DNA of 64,000 nucleotides, taken from assembly GCF_053078305.1 (NCBI RefSeq), contig NZ_CP166879.1; one strand, 5' to 3'. The notes under the pieces were generated by a model. The model worked only from the letters and a program-made list of their open reading frames with translations, searched no databases and had not been told where the DNA came from. The translations under genes and the position numbers were made by a program. The first letter of the stretch is position 1. Each line of letters opens with the position of its first letter. Shown here in pieces: positions 4,962 to 31,104 of this stretch.

Positions 4962-5072
4962 TAAAAAGAATTCAGAATCAGGCCGGAGTGCTAAATACTC
5001 CGTAAACACGGTCGTACATCCAGCCGGTAGCCTGATTCCTTGCATTGAGTGATGTACGGAGTTTATAGAGCA

Positions 5073-6287
5073 ATGAAATTACCGATTTATCTCGACTACT
5101 CCGCAACCACGCCGGTGGACCCGCGTGTTGCCGAGAAAATGATGCAGTTTATGACGATGGACGGAACCTTTGGTAACCCGGCCTCCCGTTCTCACCGTTT
5201 CGGCTGGCAGGCTGAAGAAGCGGTAGATATCGCCCGTAATCAGATTGCCGATCTGGTCGGCGCTGATCCGCGTGAAATCGTCTTTACCTCTGGTGCAACC
5301 GAATCTGACAACCTGGCGATCAAAGGTGCAGCCAACTTTTATCAGAAAAAAGGCAAGCACATCATCACCAGCAAAACCGAACACAAAGCGGTACTGGATA
5401 CCTGCCGTCAGCTGGAGCGCGAAGGTTTCGAAGTCACCTACCTGGCACCGCAGCGTAACGGTATTATCGACCTGAAAGAACTCGAAGCGGCGATGCGTGA
5501 CGACACCATCCTCGTTTCTATCATGCACGTGAATAACGAAATCGGCGTGGTACAGGATATTGCGGCTATCGGCGAAATGTGCCGTGCTCGTGGCATTATC
5601 TATCACGTTGATGCAACCCAGAGCGTGGGCAAACTGCCTATCGACCTGAGCCAGTTGAAAGTTGACCTGATGTCTTTCTCCGGTCACAAAATCTATGGCC
5701 CGAAAGGTATCGGTGCGCTGTATGTGCGTCGTAAACCGCGCGTACGCATCGAAGCGCAAATGCACGGCGGCGGTCACGAACGCGGTATGCGTTCCGGCAC
5801 TCTGCCTGTTCACCAGATCGTCGGAATGGGCGAAGCCTATCGCATCGCAAAAGAAGAGATGGCGACCGAGATGGAACGTCTGCGCGGCCTGCGTAACCGT
5901 CTGTGGAACGGCATCAAAGATATCGAAGAAGTTTACCTGAACGGTGACCTGGAACACGGTGCGCCGAACATTCTCAACGTCAGCTTCAACTACGTTGAAG
6001 GTGAGTCGCTGATTATGGCGCTGAAAGACCTCGCGGTTTCTTCCGGTTCCGCCTGTACGTCAGCAAGCCTCGAACCGTCCTACGTGCTGCGCGCGCTGGG
6101 GCTGAACGACGAGCTGGCACATAGCTCTATCCGTTTCTCTTTAGGTCGTTTTACTACTGAAGAAGAGATCGACTACACCATCGAGTTAGTTCGTAAATCC
6201 ATCGGTCGTCTGCGTGACCTTTCTCCGCTGTGGGAAATGTACAAGCAGGGCGTGGATCTGAACAGCATCGAATGGGCTCATCATTAA
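5073..6287 (+). CDS. iscS: cysteine desulfurase IscS
   Basis: ORF track 5049..6287; recognised start [16 protein letters not shown] at 5073 with GGAG upstream; 404 aa. Confidence 0.95.
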
Positions 6288-11543: not shown

Positions 11544-12329
11544 GTGGTTCTTATGTCCGAAACAAAAAATGAACTTGAAGACCTGCTGGAAAAAGCAGCA
11601 ACCGAACCGGCGCACCGCCCGGCCTTTTTCCGTACTCTACTGGAATCCACCGTCTGGGTGCCTGGTACGGCGGCGCAGGGCGAGGCTGTGGTTGAAGATA
11701 GCGCGCTTGATTTACAGCACTGGGAAAAAGAAGACGGCACCAGCGTCATTCCTTTTTTTACCTCGTTAGAAGCACTTCAACAGGCGGTTGAAGACGAACA
11801 GGCATTTGTCGTAATGCCCGTTCGCACATTGTTTGAGATGACCCTTGGCGAAACGCTCTTCCTTAATGCCAAACTGCCGACCGGTAAAGAATTTATGCCG
11901 CGTGAAATCAGTTTGTTGATTGGTGAAGAGGGAAATCCGCTGAGCAGCCAGGAAATCCTGGAAGGCGGTGAATCGCTGATATTATCGGAAGTCGCAGAGC
12001 CGCCAGCACAAATGATTGATTCACTCACCACCTTATTTAAAACCATTAAGCCTGTGAAGCGTGCTTTTATTTGTTCAATTAAAGAGAACGAAGAGGCACA
12101 GCCTAATTTACTTATTGGCATTGAAGCCGATGGTGATATCGAAGAAATTATTCAGGTGGCGGGAAGTGTAGCGACCGATACATTACCTGGCGATGAACCA
12201 ATCGATATTTGTCAGGTGAAAAAAGGGGAAAAAGGAATTAGCCACTTTATTACCGAACATATTGCGCCATTCTATGAACGTCGCTGGGGTGGTTTTTTGC
12301 GTGACTTTAAACAGAATCGGATAATCTAA
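11544..12329 (+). CDS. sseB: serine sensitivity enhancing protein SseB
   Basis: 261-aa ORF; synteny; alternative start at 11553 (MSETKNE). Confidence 0.8.
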   Translation: MVLMSETKNELEDLLEKAATEPAHRPAFFRTLLESTVWVPGTAAQGEAVVEDSALDLQHWEKEDGTSVIPFFTSLEALQQAVEDEQAFVVMPVRTLFEMTLGETLFLNAKLPTGKEFMPREISLLIGEEGNPLSSQEILEGGESLILSEVAEPPAQMIDSLTTLFKTIKPVKRAFICSIKENEEAQPNLLIGIEADGDIEEIIQVAGSVATDTLPGDEPIDICQVKKGEKGISHFITEHIAPFYERRWGGFLRDFKQNRII

Positions 12330-12646
12330 AATATGCCGCCCCAAAGGGCGGCATTCGGGCTTACCTGCTGCTCTGAAGGTTGTTAATCACCAGTAAATTG
12401 TTACCGGAGAGACTCCGGTTATTATTTACCTCGGTTAACAGCGCACCAGAAACAATAAGTACGATACAAAAGCACCGTATCTTCATTGTGCGGTCCATGC
12501 GAAGACCGCATCACGACAGCACCACTGGCGATATTGCCGCGATAGCAAGCGCTGTGAAACACCTGCATTTACGGCCACGGAACATCCTTTCCTAAAGCCA
12601 GCGCCCGTTTGCGAGACGGCGGAAAGGGCCGGTGTCGATAATACGC
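12330..12646 (-). ncRNA. ryfA: ryfA-like RNA copy 1 (candidate small-protein mRNA, TimP/RyfA family)
   Basis: location between sseB and sseA; minus-strand terminator hairpin at 12332-12353; conserved internal hairpins; predicted length ~300 nt; 5' end inferred. Confidence 0.45.
12361..12498 (-). CDS. 45-codon small hydrophobic ORF inside ryfA-like copy 1 (MDRTMKIRCFCIVLIVSGALLTEVNNNRSLSGNNLLVINNLQSSR), candidate small membrane toxin
   Basis: hand-translated minus strand; conserved in copy 2 with 2 synonymous and 2 conservative changes; not in ORF track (below size cutoff). Confidence 0.4.
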   Translation of the reverse strand: MDRTMKIRCFCIVLIVSGALLTEVNNNRSLSGNNLLVINNLQSSR

Positions 12647-12661
12647 TAAATAAACAATAAT

Positions 12662-12704
12662 TACTCTCTTTTGCTTGACAAAAAGAGAGTTGCTGGCGAA
12701 TATT
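12662..12704. promoter_or_regulatory. palindromic divergent promoter region of ryfA-like locus copy 1
   Basis: inverted repeat ACTCTCTTTT-GCTTGAC-AAAAGAGAGT centred on TTGACA (plus) / TTGTCA (minus) -35-like hexamers. Confidence 0.35.
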
Positions 12705-12709
12705 GCTCT

Positions 12710-12812
12710 GCTGTGAAGCACCTGCGTTGCTCATGCAACACAAGTCAATCTGCTGGAGAGGCCGCGAACCAAACCGGCAACAAATAACCGCCTGATTTTG
12801 GCGGTTTTTTGT
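12710..12812 (+). ncRNA. candidate short plus-strand sRNA divergent from ryfA-like copy 1
   Basis: TTGACA-N18-AATATT promoter-like sequence at 12675-12704 and hairpin+T6 terminator at 12786-12812; internal hairpin GTTGC-loop-GCAAC conserved in copy 2 with loop change. Confidence 0.3.
12786..12812. terminator. bidirectional rho-independent terminator (copy 1)
   Basis: AACCGCC-TGATTT-GGCGGTT followed by TTTTTT. Confidence 0.55.
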
Positions 12813-12930
12813 TGCTTAAAGAAAGTGAATTTACATGTTTAAGTAATATCTTTTACCGGTTAGTATTTTTAATATTGAGCGGGATTTGTTTATATTTGTC
12901 TGAATTCGGACTAATAAGCCAGGTTATTTT

Positions 12931-13010
12931 ATTACTGACATATTGCGCCATTCTATGAACGTCGCTGGGGTGGTTTTTTGCATCACTTTAAACAGAATCG
13001 GATAATCTAA
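12931..13010 (+). pseudogene. duplicated 3' fragment of sseB carried on repeat unit 2
   Basis: near-identical to sseB codons for ...HIAPFYERRWGGFLRDFKQNRII* but without upstream gene. Confidence 0.55.
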
Positions 13011-13327
13011 AATATGCCGCCCCAAAGGGCGGCATTCGGGCTTACCTGCTGTTCTGAAGGTTGTTGACCACCAGTAAATTGTTGCCGGAGAGACTCCGGT
13101 TATTATTTACCTCGGTTAACAGCGCACCAGAAACAATAAGTACGATACAGAAGCACCGTATCTTCATTGTGCGGTCCATGCGAAGACCGCATCACGACAG
13201 CACCACTGGCGATATTGCCGCGATAGCAAGCACTGTGGGGTGCCTGTATTTACGGTCATGGAACATCCTTTCCTAAAGCCAGCGCCCGTTTGCGAGACGG
13301 CGAAAAGGGCCATTAAGAATAATACTC
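13011..13327 (-). ncRNA. ryfA: ryfA-like RNA copy 2
   Basis: 681-bp offset copy of 12330..12646 with conserved terminator hairpin at 13013-13034. Confidence 0.4.
13042..13179 (-). CDS. 45-codon small hydrophobic ORF, copy 2 (…VVNNLQNSR)
   Basis: same frame and length as 12361..12498; differences F(ttt>ttc) and G(ggt>ggc) synonymous, I>V and S>N conservative. Confidence 0.4.
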   Translation of the reverse strand: MDRTMKIRCFCIVLIVSGALLTEVNNNRSLSGNNLLVVNNLQNSR

Positions 13328-13391
13328 TCATGTTTGAATAATTACTCTGTTTATTATCTTGACACAGCCAGGCATAAAAGAGAGTATTTCA

Positions 13392-13495
13392 ACACTGTGG
13401 GGTGCCTGCGTTGCTCCGGCAACACAAGTCAACCTGCTGGAAAGGCCGCGAACCAGACCAGCAATAAAAAACCGCCAAATTCGGCGGTTTTTTAT
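13392..13495 (+). ncRNA. candidate short plus-strand sRNA, copy 2
   Basis: homolog of 12710..12812 ending at hairpin AAAAACCGCC-AAATTC-GGCGGTTTTT. Confidence 0.3.
13466..13495. terminator. bidirectional terminator shared by sseA and ryfA-like locus
   Basis: perfect hairpin flanked by A6 and T6, 15 bp beyond sseA stop. Confidence 0.6.
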
Positions 13496-13509
13496 TGCCT
13501 GTAAAAAGC

Positions 13510-14355
13510 TTATTTCAATGGCTCAACCGGTAAATCTGCCCGCGCGCCCCATTCACTCCATGCGCCGTCGTACAGTTTCACGTTTGGCACATCCAGCGTC
13601 GCGAGTGCCAACAAAACCACGGCTGCTGTTACACCAGAGCCGCAGCTGACGATAATCGGTTTGTCATAGCTGACGCCGCGACCAAAAAATATCGCATCCA
13701 GTTCATCGGTCGTTTTTAGTTCGCCTTCGCGCACCAGTTCCGTCCACGGAACGTTCAATGCACCTGGAATATGTCCGCGACGTAAACCTGGGCGAGGTTC
13801 ATCAACTTCTGCGTTAAAACGTGCAGCCGGGCGGGCATCAATAATTTGCGCCGTATTTTCATGGCTTGCCAATAACACATCGGTTACTTTCACCACTACT
13901 TCAGGATTAAACGCGGCGTTAAACTCTCCTTCCGGCAGCTCTACTGCACCTTCTTCTAACAACAGATCATCGCGCTGCCAGCCTGCAAGTCCACCCCCCA
14001 GAATCGACACTTTCTCTACACCAAAGGTGCGCAGCATCCACCATGCTCGTGGGGCTGAGAAAAGATTACCTTCGTCATAGACAATCAGGTGCTTATCCTG
14101 GTTAACGCCTAATTCACGCATCGCCACGGCGAACGTTTCCGGGCGCGGCAGCATGTGCGGAAGCGGGGAAGTGTGATCAGAAAGCGCTTCGATATCAAAA
14201 AACACTGCGCCGGGAATATGTCCATTCAGATACTCCTGAGCAACGTTACGATCTTCCTGTCCAGGCGACGCCATGCGGGCATCGATAATCTGAATTTCCG
14301 GGTCATCAATATGTTCGGCGAGCCAGTCGGCTCCTACAAACCATGTCGTGGACAT
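13510..14355 (-). CDS. sseA: 3-mercaptopyruvate sulfurtransferase SseA
   Basis: ORF track 13510..14514; recognised start MSTTWFVGADWL gives 281 aa; rhodanese CSGSGVTA motif. Confidence 0.9.
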   Translation of the reverse strand: MSTTWFVGADWLAEHIDDPEIQIIDARMASPGQEDRNVAQEYLNGHIPGAVFFDIEALSDHTSPLPHMLPRPETFAVAMRELGVNQDKHLIVYDEGNLFSAPRAWWMLRTFGVEKVSILGGGLAGWQRDDLLLEEGAVELPEGEFNAAFNPEVVVKVTDVLLASHENTAQIIDARPAARFNAEVDEPRPGLRRGHIPGALNVPWTELVREGELKTTDELDAIFFGRGVSYDKPIIVSCGSGVTAAVVLLALATLDVPNVKLYDGAWSEWGARADLPVEPLK

Positions 14356-14561
14356 AGGCATCTCCATTTTTGCCGGGGTTAGGCTAAATTGTCGGATGTT
14401 TAGTGAAAAGCGACAAGCAAAAGAGGCTGATTTGGCTGTCTGAGCCACAATTCTCACTAAAATTCGGATTGTATGGGCGTGATACTGAATTACATAACGT
14501 AAATTCTCACGCATAATAATTATTCGACGTTGCTAACGGGCCATTGTGGCAGGGATGAAAA

Positions 14562-29875: not shown

Positions 29876-30994
29876 ATGCATAACCAGGCTCCAATTCAAC
29901 GTAGAAAATCAACACGTATTTACGTTGGGAATGTGCCGATTGGCGATGGTGCTCCCATCGCCGTACAGTCCATGACCAATACGCGTACGACAGATGTCGA
30001 AGCAACGGTCAATCAAATCAAGGCGCTGGAACGCGTTGGCGCTGATATCGTCCGTGTCTCCGTACCGACGATGGACGCGGCAGAAGCGTTCAAACTCATC
30101 AAACAGCAGGTTAACGTGCCGCTGGTGGCTGACATCCACTTCGACTATCGCATTGCGCTGAAAGTAGCGGAATACGGTGTCGATTGTCTGCGTATTAACC
30201 CTGGCAATATCGGTAATGAAGAGCGTATTCGCATGGTGGTTGACTGTGCGCGCGATAAAAACATTCCGATCCGTATTGGCGTTAACGCCGGATCGCTGGA
30301 AAAAGATCTGCAAGAAAAGTATGGCGAACCGACGCCGCAGGCGTTGCTGGAATCCGCCATGCGCCATGTTGATCATCTCGATCGCCTGAACTTCGATCAG
30401 TTCAAAGTCAGCGTGAAAGCGTCTGACGTCTTCCTCGCTGTTGAGTCTTATCGTTTGCTGGCAAAACAAATCGATCAGCCGCTGCATCTGGGGATCACCG
30501 AAGCGGGTGGCGCGCGCAGCGGGGCAGTAAAATCCGCCATTGGTTTAGGTCTGCTGCTGTCTGAAGGCATCGGCGACACGCTGCGCGTATCACTGGCGGC
30601 CGATCCGGTCGAAGAGATCAAAGTCGGTTTCGATATTTTGAAATCGCTTCGTATCCGTTCGCGAGGTATCAACTTCATCGCCTGTCCGACCTGTTCGCGT
30701 CAGGAATTTGATGTTATCGGTACAGTTAACGCGCTGGAGCAACGCCTGGAAGATATCATCACTCCGATGGACGTTTCGATTATTGGCTGCGTGGTGAATG
30801 GCCCGGGTGAGGCGCTGGTATCTACACTCGGCGTCACCGGCGGCAACAAGAAAAGCGGTCTCTATGAAGATGGCGTGCGCAAAGACCGTCTGGACAACAA
30901 CGATATGATCGACCAGCTGGAGGCACGCATTCGTGCGAAAGCCAGTCAGCTGGACGAAGCGCGTCGAATTGACGTTCAGCAGGTTGAAAAATAA
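29876..30994 (+). CDS. ispG: HMBPP synthase IspG
   Basis: 372-aa [26 protein letters not shown]. Confidence 0.95.
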
Positions 30995-31104
30995 TAACGT
31001 GATGGGAAGCGCCTCGCTTCCCGTGTATGATTGAACCCGCATGGCTCCCGAAACATTGAGGGAAGCGTTGAGGGTTCATTTTTATATTCAGAAAGAGAAT
31101 AAAC

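Follow-up and report, generated by a model that had tools for sequence, protein, structure and literature searches.

Two tandem modules related to the timP/TimR toxin–antitoxin system in an Escherichia/Shigella sseA–sseB spacer

Described timP/TimR systems and related type I pairs

The timP transcript was originally listed as an 'sRNA', RyfA, and a 45-aa ORF within it (+135 to +270) has already been described in UPEC CFT073 (PMC8205139). In Salmonella, translation, start codon, toxicity and inner-membrane location of TimP and its repression by TimR have been demonstrated (PMC7667032). Activation of Salmonella timP is a purely structural switch (PMC11228461, PMC13000454); its SL1–SL3 pseudoknot is essential for translation, and SL4 has been probed experimentally (PMC11228461). 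In Shigella dysenteriae, the tandem ~305-nt RNAs ryfA1/ryfA2, which are ~95% identical, and the accompanying ryfB1/ryfB2 were read as non-coding regulators ('sibling sRNAs') and protein went undetected (PMC5333039, Fris et al. 2017). RyfB1 lowers RyfA1 RNA in this species, a repression that is RyfB1-specific (PMC5333039). The divergent, non-overlapping E. coli pairs zorO-orzO, tisB-istR-1, shoB-ohsC and dinQ-agrB resemble timPR in that the toxin is a small hydrophobic protein of the inner membrane, its ribosome-binding site is hidden by a long structured 5'UTR, and a trans-like antisense sRNA with 16-20 nt of complementarity is encoded divergently. In contrast to timP with its purely structural switch, the zorO, tisB, shoB and dinQ mRNAs need cleavage to be translatable, and TimP lacks sequence homology to the ZorO, TisB, ShoB and DinQ toxins.

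The window analysed here, a stretch of 64,000 nucleotides from contig NZ_CP166879.1, contains two tandem modules of this type (Table 1), compared with one in the timPR locus of Salmonella enterica (Andresen et al. 2020; Eleftheraki & Holmqvist 2024; Eleftheraki et al. 2026). Both loci share the sseA/sseB position, the RNA family RF00126 and the protein family NF040796, a non-overlapping antitoxin sRNA that is encoded divergently and has a 5' end complementary to SL2 and, as predicted here from sequence, stem-loops SL1-SL4, the pseudoknot sites, the site 2-4 pairing and a Shine-Dalgarno (SD) sequence within SL4. They differ in the length of the product (41 aa here, 38 aa in Salmonella), in its Asn-rich C-terminal tail, which has no predicted LHA|D cleavage motif, in the SD sequence, which is AUGGA instead of AAGGA and thereby creates an extra in-frame upstream ATG, and in the lack of an STM2534-like gene between module and sseA. 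Furthermore, the two large RNAs are 94.4% identical, the divergence between the two small RNAs far exceeds that between the large ones, and a five-nucleotide variable region lies inside the site complementary to an upstream divergent ~100-nt RNA, all of which resembles the S. dysenteriae arrangement. Tandem duplication with seed divergence is also a feature of zorO-orzO / zorP-orzP. The tandem repeat has an offset of 681 bp and the alignment of the copies runs into the 3' end of sseB, a stump of which is duplicated at the edge of the repeat unit; the equivalent stump in strain ES5 is a partial pseudogene in RefSeq.

Table 1. Features of the two timP modules and their surroundings (window coordinates).
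Feature	Position	Strand	Basis
SseB	11544..12329	+	ORF listing
timP mRNA copy 1 (formerly sRNA RyfA), adjoins sseB	12328..12632	-	RF00126
Intrinsic terminator of copy 1; on the other strand, just past the sseB stop	12333..12354	-	9 pairs, 7 G-C, tail ATTTTAG
timP CDS copy 1, 41 codons + stop, MKIRCFCIVLIVSGALLTEVNNNRSLSGNNLLVINNLQSSR	12361..12486	-	NF040796, RefSeq
Four-codon upstream extension MDRT of the 45-codon ORF, overlaps SD region	12487..12498	-	SL4 fold, Salmonella comparison
SL4 hairpin GCGGUCUUCGCAUGGACCGC, sequesters SD (GGA) of timP copy 1 (predicted)	12490..12509	-	MFE and centroid folds
Predicted pseudoknot partners, copy 1: site 1 CGCUGGC 12597-12603 (SL1), site 3 GCCAGUG 12523-12529 (SL3 loop)	12523..12603	-	complementarity
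SL2 / TimR-binding region copy 1 (+55..+82), predicted; variable region UGUUU, site 2 GGCCGU 12571-12576	12549..12576	-	duplex
TimR1 (RyfB-type) sRNA, divergent from timP copy 1; seed GCUGUGAAGCACCUGC	12710..12810	+	homology to K-12 timR b4811 (5' end)
Duplicated stump, last ~90 nt of sseB; edge of repeat unit	12921..13010	+	alignment of the two copies
timP mRNA copy 2 (ryfA copy adjoining sseA)	13009..13313	-	RF00126
timP CDS copy 2, 41 codons + stop, MKIRCFCIVLIVSGALLTEVNNNRSLSGNNLLVVNNLQNSR	13042..13167	-	NF040796
SL2 / TimR-binding region copy 2, predicted; variable region CACCC	13230..13257	-	duplex
TimR2 sRNA, divergent from timP copy 2; seed CACUGUGGGGUGCCUG	13394..13493	+	conserved TimR core and seed
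SseA	13510..14514	-	ORF listing

Identity, start codon and coding signal of the small ORFs

The first-pass annotation had reported a 45-codon minus-strand ORF in both ryfA copies, and its coordinates and translations agree exactly with the ORF listing (12361..12498, MDRTMKIRCFCIVLIVSGALLTEVNNNRSLSGNNLLVINNLQSSR, for copy 1; 13042..13179, ending LLVVNNLQNSR, for copy 2). Both ORFs are situated in the 3' half of the ryfA/timP RNA, on the same strand as the RF00126 match and between sseA and sseB, which is also the placement of timP in K-12 and Salmonella. The Rfam ryfA model RF00126 matches both copies over its full length, with 320.6 bits for copy 1 (model 1-296) and 323.1 bits for copy 2. The NCBIfam profile NF040796 (toxic_TimP; cutoff 45) scores 88.1 and 83.7 bits, respectively, with all 40 profile positions (1-40) aligned to residues 5-44 of the 45-aa ORF. 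Homologue searches returned TimP-named proteins in Escherichia, Shigella, Citrobacter and Salmonella. The closest E. coli genomes carry two timP annotations in RefSeq, with CDSs of 126 nt, and the K-12 annotation contains timP (b4812) and timR (b4811). The exact 41-aa sequence of copy 1 is deposited as TimP on at least 1000 contigs and that of copy 2 on 32 contigs, and a hypothetical protein deposited for S. dysenteriae 155-74 has exactly the 45-aa sequence of copy 2.

With high probability (about 0.9), the two ORFs represent a tandem duplication of timP, which encodes the toxin in the type I toxin-antitoxin system timP/TimR of enterobacteria. The earlier proposal of a type-I-toxin-like small membrane protein on the ryfA strand is supported by the NF040796 match, the RefSeq timP annotation and the characterisation in Salmonella (PMC7667032). 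However, the timP ORF in both ryfA copies is already described and annotated and is not a new finding; as gene, product family, antitoxin RNA, translation switch and tandem duplication have all been published, the locus carries little weight as a discovery. It is, nevertheless, a clean positive control, indicating that reading sequence alone can recover a genuine toxin gene of fewer than 50 codons.

The hydrophobic core claimed for the product was borne out by a Kyte-Doolittle mean of +2.9 for CFCIVLIVSGALL, which follows the N-terminal MKIR, compared with -0.7 for the remaining tail. As expected of TimP, the 41-aa product is predicted to consist of a short basic N-terminus, a 13-residue hydrophobic segment that would serve as a Sec signal-anchor without being cleaved, and a polar C-terminal tail. 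TimP would insert in the inner membrane, and its over-production would make the membrane leaky.

Two in-frame ATG codons are candidate starts. The first (12498 / 13179), from which the ORF had primarily been listed, is in frame in Escherichia and Citrobacter, is the annotated start of some RefSeq Citrobacter entries (42 aa) and of the GenBank entry of S. dysenteriae 155-74, and would yield the 45-aa protein drawn for UPEC CFT073 (PMC8205139). We nevertheless regard a 45-aa product as very unlikely. The upstream ATG has no SD upstream of it and falls within the predicted hairpin SL4, which is very stable, at the loop and the 3' side of the stem. It is not conserved but occupies the SD position, as the ATGGA found here corresponds to AAGGA in Salmonella, with AAG in place of the ATG. 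Furthermore, the curated TimP profile starts at the second Met, the second ATG is used by the K-12 and RefSeq annotations, and mutation of the downstream ATG in Salmonella led to the loss of both protein and toxicity (PMC7667032). The profile, RefSeq and Salmonella evidence thus favours the other candidate named in the first-pass annotation, the ATG at 12486 / 13167 (41 aa), and the MDRT extension is probably untranslated. The loci from a scan of genome contigs with the SL4/start pattern GCGGTCNNNGCANNGACCGCACNANNAAG, which recovered six in Escherichia and Citrobacter only, are uninformative on the start codon, because the pattern itself forced conservation of the upstream ATG. Salmonella has GCAAGGACCGCAAC instead, and its locus was obtained by a protein search with the profile and subsequent retrieval of the contigs encoding matches.

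The two copies differ at 17 of 305 positions, of which 12 are in the 5'UTR, five in the ORF and none in the 3' end. The codon changes had been read correctly as TTT/TTC (Phe), GGT/GGC (Gly), Ile/Val and Ser/Asn, but they amount to five rather than four nucleotide differences (three synonymous, two non-synonymous), because the Ile/Val codon (ATT vs GTC) contains two changes. The argument for purifying selection that had been built on these two copies does not hold statistically, as the differences are too few (Nei-Gojobori dN/dS 0.19; binomial p=0.085). ORF length alone is no evidence either, because stop-free runs of comparable length occur in other frames; within the ~270-nt stretch they reach 48-49 codons in all three sense frames and up to 72-78 codons in antisense. 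Disruption of the frame in other species had been named as a refuting observation; the timP frame is open in 12 loci of three genera and was intact in all loci examined from Escherichia, Citrobacter and Salmonella. The proposed comparison of dN/dS across homologs gave overall values of 0.25-0.8 between genera, which are only moderately below 1. Relative to Salmonella, pN/pS is 0.16-0.26 over the N-terminal 17 codons and about 0.55-0.75 in the tail; part of this conservation could be due to RNA constraints, since the conserved N-terminal codons are also contained in an RNA stem-loop. At the sequence level, the convincing coding evidence is the profile-HMM match, the conservation of this frame, and not of the others, in Salmonella and Citrobacter, and the frame-preserving indels, with ORF length differences of 6 and 3 nt between homologues.

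A 71-aa ORF on the plus strand (12380..12595 and 13061..13276) exceeds the minus-strand ORF in length and is likewise present in both copies. It was rejected as the gene because two or three stops interrupt the equivalent frame in Citrobacter and Salmonella. In addition, this ORF begins with TTG and is antisense to the mapped transcript, and two homologue searches, whose queries did not include it, returned only proteins of the minus-strand (TimP) frame. The probability that the plus strand is the coding strand is negligible.

Leader structure and translation of the timP mRNAs

Folding showed the copy 1 RNA to be strongly structured, with a minimum free energy of -126 kcal/mol (z = -6.1), and gave -119.7 kcal/mol (z = -4.4) for copy 2. 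Transcription is likely to start at 12630 (G) and 13311, respectively; the former position was derived from the Salmonella start codon at +145 (PMC7667032) and from the position of a TATTAT -10 box (12638-12643), which has the same spacing in Salmonella. Hairpins SL2, SL3 and SL4 are predicted in both copies, and the SL4 stem (GCGGUCU/GGACCGC), which is identical in sequence across Escherichia and Citrobacter, is present in both the MFE and the centroid folds of each. By complementarity, sites 1 and 3 could form 7 bp including one G-U in both copies; this pairing is perfect in Salmonella and still compatible with the Citrobacter site 1 (CACUGGU). Similarly, sites 2 and 4 (site scheme of PMC13000454) could form 6 bp between G[G/A]CCGU and GCGGUC in both copies. 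The terminator hairpin reported downstream of the stop codon is present as ATGCCGCCC-TTTG-GGGCGGCAT at 12333-12354 and 13014-13035, at a distance of 6 nt (TAA-GCCCGA-ATGCC...) rather than 8.

Based on these elements, each ~300-nt timP mRNA would be transcribed from the minus strand and end at the GC-rich hairpin by sseB (copy 1) or the sseB stump (copy 2). The 144-nt leader would fold into four stem-loops with the SD trapped by SL4, and translation of the 41 codons from the ATG at 12486 / 13167 would require the SL1-SL3 pseudoknot and the long-range site 2-4 pairing that opens SL4.

Several groups attribute phenotypes in Escherichia and Shigella to the RNA. To our knowledge, no Escherichia or Shigella TimP protein has been detected by anyone, and a search of the literature for ribosome profiling of E. 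coli ryfA turned up no evidence apart from the Salmonella work. The transcript could be a regulatory RNA (RyfA) only, with an untranslated relic ORF conserved through RNA structure. A ryfA1 5'UTR-gfp fusion produced no GFP in E. coli DH5alpha; this fusion used another predicted start (a 30-aa ORF) and a host with chromosomal timR (PMC5333039). Moreover, ryfA alleles with a destroyed ORF complemented all phenotypes of the UPEC ryfA mutant (PMC8205139), APEC was only minimally affected by deletion of timR (PMC13188913), a predicted stem-loop encloses the start codon and the first ~12 codons, the SD (AUGGA) is weaker than that of Salmonella (AAGGA), which counts against translation, and the two-copy comparison alone is not significant. 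Such a purely regulatory role is unlikely in our view, as the intact timP frame contrasts with a broken antisense frame, indels are multiples of three, and synonymous exceeds non-synonymous change in the hydrophobic segment. Both copies have also kept the SD hairpin, the pseudoknot sites, the site 2-4 pairing and a matched antitoxin-like sRNA. Furthermore, Salmonella TimP is toxic when expressed from the E. coli chromosome (PMC13000454), and a dual function as mRNA and riboregulator fits all data. Judged by homology, the proteins encoded here would be made and be toxic.

TimR-like RNAs and their seed specificity

Each timP is preceded by a divergent gene for a putative TimR RNA. TimR1 has a promoter that matches at 10 of 12 positions (TTGACA at 12675, 18-nt spacing, AATATT at 12704) and a terminator at 12786-12806. 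For TimR2, a TTGACA -35 box (13359-13364) and a terminator hairpin followed by a T-run ending at 13493 were identified, and the promoter and the exact ends are inferred; it shows a 96% match to the 3' part of K-12 timR and a sub-threshold resemblance to Rfam AgrB (E = 0.034). As suggested by the Salmonella system, the 5' end of each ~100-nt TimR would pair with the SL2 loop of its cognate timP leader, thereby breaking the pseudoknot conformation and blocking translation.

Duplex predictions (RNAduplex) were restricted to the seed and SL2 segments, as predictions over the entire molecules were not meaningful. TimR1 is predicted to pair with timP copy 1 at -36.1 kcal/mol (contiguous run of 20, including three G-U), compared with only -15.1 kcal/mol for copy 2. 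TimR2 is predicted to pair with copy 2 at -40.1 kcal/mol (16 contiguous Watson-Crick pairs), and its seed (...GGGGUG...) would also pair with copy 1 at -31.5 kcal/mol via five G-U wobbles. Since the seeds have co-varied in both modules, each TimR best matches its own timP, and co-variation of seed and target extends across Escherichia, Salmonella and K-12. In K-12, the TimR-like gene beside timP seems to be an orphan, with a seed matching the timP site of E. whittamii, and the true timP antitoxin seems to lie at a distance of 400 nt, beyond a second timP that has been deleted.

Rather than being simply redundant, the modules might be partly orthogonal to each other, with cross-talk in one direction only and at least three interchangeable seed specificity types circulating in Escherichia, a reading that we put forward only tentatively and hold to be somewhat doubtful. 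The locus raises the questions of whether the Escherichia/Shigella TimP variants are translated and toxic and whether the two co-varied modules cross-regulate each other. If the modules are indeed partly orthogonal, the sseA-sseB spacer would be a place where antitoxin specificities turn over on a small scale, in a manner comparable to zorO/orzO.

Tandem timP modules between sseB and sseA

Two 45-codon ORFs were recovered from the ORF listing with the coordinates and translations reported in the first-pass annotation, one within each of two ryfA matches (gathering score 80), which came back when the Rfam scan was repeated across the whole window (see table). Copy 1 (timP1) adjoins sseB and copy 2 (timP2) adjoins sseA. 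Sequence reading and pairwise alignment of both repeat units revealed a tandem duplication with an offset of 681 bp. Each unit includes the final ~90 nt of sseB together with a structured stretch of ~305 nt and a short divergent region. The equivalent of the resulting sseB stump is annotated in RefSeq as a partial pseudogene in the two-copy E. coli strain ES5.

The proposal that the ORF encodes a type I toxin-like small protein is borne out by its membership of the TimP family of the timPR system, as identified by the 40-position NF040796 TimP profile (alignment starting at residue 5 of the 45-aa ORF), TimP-named homologues, and RefSeq and K-12 annotation. With this profile, copies 1 and 2 score 88.1 and 83.7 bits against a cutoff of 45. 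A search of 5.8 billion proteins recovered dozens of TimP-named proteins of 41 aa from Escherichia and Shigella, to which the profile search adds TimP of 38 or 42 aa from Citrobacter and Salmonella. Both 41-aa window proteins have exact existing database entries under the name TimP, and the 45-aa form of copy 2 has an identical counterpart in a hypothetical protein from Shigella dysenteriae 155-74. K-12 MG1655 is annotated with ryfA (b4440), timP (b4812, 41 aa) and timR (b4811). The closest complete E. coli genomes (98.9% identity over the 1.2-kb region) contain two annotated timP genes between sseB and sseA, each a 126-nt CDS, and none of 5426 complete E. coli genomes matched window positions 12300-13520 at more than 98.9%. 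Together with the copy 2 match to S. dysenteriae 155-74, this makes Shigella, or else an unusual lineage of Escherichia, a possible origin of the window. The 305-nt query was found at 5590 places across 5425 E. coli genomes, so the two-copy state is a minority condition (roughly 3%). Every testable sequence-level hallmark of the TimP family and the timPR system is present.

The two 305-nt RNAs differ at 17 positions: 12 fall within the 134 nt that precede the first ATG and include five consecutive changes (UGUUU versus CACCC), the other five are in the ORF, and the 3' end has none. Between the repeat units, timP is 94% identical, whereas the parts containing the promoters and TimR (the divergent RyfB-type antitoxin sRNA) are much more diverged; this pattern suggests that the duplication is old and that timP has since been homogenised or kept under constraint. 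A terminator scan confirmed the proposed minus-strand terminator hairpin, which begins 6 nt past the stop codon rather than 8.

The Rfam scan also matched IS128, an old sRNA candidate family, across the sseB stump, the AT-rich unique spacer and the antisense of the TimR1 terminator; the family probably represents the stretch between the modules and not an RNA gene in its own right. The iscR stability element and sroE are ordinary for the isc-to-hisS chromosome region and fit an Escherichia/Shigella chromosome, and no tRNA genes were found in the 64 kb window.

Features of the timP region and other Rfam matches in the window
Feature	Position	Strand	Basis
ryfA (RF00126) copy 1	12328-12632	-	Rfam, full-length, 320.6 bits
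ryfA (RF00126) copy 2	13009-13313	-	Rfam, full-length, 323.1 bits
45-codon ORF, copy 1	12361-12498	-	ORF listing
45-codon ORF, copy 2	13042-13179	-	ORF listing
SL2/TimR-binding region, timP copy 1	12549-12576		predicted pairing
SL2/TimR-binding region, timP copy 2	13230-13257		predicted pairing
TimR1 stretch	12710-12740		predicted pairing
TimR2 stretch	13394-13425		predicted pairing
sseB stump (duplicated last ~90 nt)	12921-13010	+	boundary of tandem repeat
IS128 (RF00125)	12768-12977	-	Rfam, full-length, 210 bits
iscR stability element (RF01517)	4962-5071	+	Rfam, 138 bits
sroE (RF00371)	30994-31085	+	Rfam, 117 bits

Coding signal and translation start

ORF length is uninformative as coding evidence, since stop-free runs of 48-49 codons occur in all three sense frames of this stretch and longer ones in the antisense frames. 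Codon-by-codon comparison of the copies confirmed the four variant codons described previously but raised the nucleotide count from four to five, as ATT/GTC comprises two changes; three differences are synonymous and two non-synonymous. With a dN/dS of 0.19 (Nei-Gojobori) but a binomial p of 0.085 for the synonymous excess among five differences, these changes can only suggest the purifying selection that had been argued from them. What decides the matter is comparative evidence. No frame disruption was seen in homologues: the frame is open in all 12 timP loci compared (two window copies, two copies in E. coli ES5, K-12, another E. coli, E. whittamii, Escherichia sp. E1V33, three Citrobacter and Salmonella). 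Two gaps, one of two codons and one of a single codon, account for the length difference between 41-aa and 38-aa TimP, and the Rfam alignment of ryfA has matching insertions of 6 and 3 nt. Compared with Salmonella, pN/pS is 0.16-0.26 in the first 17 codons (MKIR and the hydrophobic segment) and 0.55-0.75 in the fast-evolving polar tail, in agreement with the published conservation of the N-terminal signal sequence (PMC7667032, section 13). A plus-strand 71-aa ORF overlapping the region was rejected because stop codons break its frame in both Citrobacter and Salmonella.

In a Salmonella enterica locus, the counterpart of GCAUGGACCGCACAAUGAAG is GCAAGGACCGCAACAUGAAG. The ATG listed first as start by the first-pass annotation (12498/13179) is absent from Salmonella and occupies the Shine-Dalgarno (SD) position (AUGGA in the window versus AAGGA in Salmonella). 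In the predicted folds of both RNAs it straddles the loop and the 3' stem of a 7-bp hairpin (GCGGUCU/GGACCGC), identified as SL4, the experimentally probed, SD-sequestering hairpin (PMC11228461). By homology to Salmonella, the start would instead be the alternative ATG (12486/13167), yielding a 41-aa product; the Salmonella ORF runs from +145 to +261, and replacing its start ATG with AAG abolishes both protein and toxicity (PMC7667032, section 7). The inferred transcription starts (12630 and 13311) lie seven nt downstream of a TATTAT box kept in both window copies and Salmonella. RefSeq start calls for Citrobacter TimP are inconsistent, with 42 aa from an upstream MDR(T/A) ATG (P0062, P0066, P0067, P0069, P0071-P0073) versus 38 aa from the conserved MKIR start (P0061, P0063, P0064, P0068).

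Leader structure and TimR pairing

RNA folding predicted the stem-loops SL2, SL3 and SL4 in both leaders, which also contain pseudoknot sites 1 (CGCUGGC) and 3 (GCCAGUG) and a site 2 (G(G/A)CCGU) complementary to the 5' arm of SL4. These elements control timP translation in Salmonella (PMC11228461, PMC13000454). Each timP has a divergent neighbour of ~100 nt that carries a TTGACA -35 box, a GC-rich terminator and a T-run and is homologous to the annotated timR of K-12. No Rfam family is dedicated to TimR. At 13415-13496 (plus strand), TimR2 resembles the dinQ antitoxin sRNA AgrB (RF02891) only below threshold, scoring 30.7 bits (E = 0.034; gathering score 40).

In both modules, the 5' end of TimR shows complementarity to the SL2 region of its neighbouring timP, with predicted duplex energies of -36.1 kcal/mol (TimR1-timP1) and -40.1 kcal/mol (TimR2-timP2). 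The non-cognate duplexes were predicted at -15.1 kcal/mol (TimR1-timP2) and, via five consecutive G-U wobbles, -31.5 kcal/mol (TimR2-timP1). Cross-talk is thus predicted to be asymmetric, with TimR2 able to pair with timP copy 1 but TimR1 unable to pair with copy 2. The five-nt block distinguishing the leaders is matched by a complementary block in the two TimR seeds, and seed and target co-vary likewise in Salmonella and other Escherichia. This matching parallels the "variable region" and RyfB1-specific repression of S. dysenteriae ryfA1/ryfA2 (PMC5333039).

K-12 MG1655 (L010, record 2653340-2653860) has one intact timP, whose matching TimR (b4811, seed GCUGUGAAGCACCUGC) lies ~400 nt off, adjoining sseA, beyond what is left (~25 nt) of a second, deleted timP. 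Directly alongside the intact timP is a TimR-like gene with another seed, CGCUGAGACGCGCUUGC; this seed complements the SL2 site of timP in Escherichia whittamii (L005) and not that of K-12 timP. The gene looks like an orphan antitoxin belonging to a third specificity type. In Citrobacter amalonaticus AUH_CA_2023_1 (L004, 8040-8190), TimR terminator/core-like sequence stands in for the part of the timP leader upstream of about +60; this looks like a deletion removing the promoter, SL1 and a pseudoknot site, and the copy is therefore probably dead.

Proposed regulation and significance

Those of the following steps that have been established only in Salmonella are transferred to the window by homology. 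The timP mRNA would be constitutive but, with its SD hidden in SL4, would mostly go untranslated. In some molecules, a pseudoknotted conformation would allow site 2 to open SL4, and 30S subunits would initiate at the second ATG. TimR would pair with SL2 of this conformation and switch translation off; when TimR falls, the 41-aa signal-anchored peptide may build up in the inner membrane, causing leakage and growth arrest.

To date, TimP protein has never been detected in Escherichia or Shigella. In work on S. dysenteriae, a leader-gfp fusion built on another predicted start and placed in a timR+ host was negative (PMC5333039, section 3.6). Furthermore, UPEC mutants were complemented by ORF-disrupted ryfA alleles (PMC8205139, section 20), and an APEC timR deletion was nearly silent (PMC13188913). 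A dual role as riboregulator and toxin mRNA is possible, as is a mostly silent toxin.

The ORF finding is correct but already known, since the ORF, including its 45-codon form (PMC8205139), the timPR system (three mechanistic papers: PMC7667032, PMC11228461, PMC13000454) and the tandem arrangement (PMC5333039) are published and the gene is in the reference annotation. Mildly new are only the predicted one-way cross-pairing of the modules and the evidence from K-12 and E. whittamii that TimR seeds have been shuffled or orphaned.
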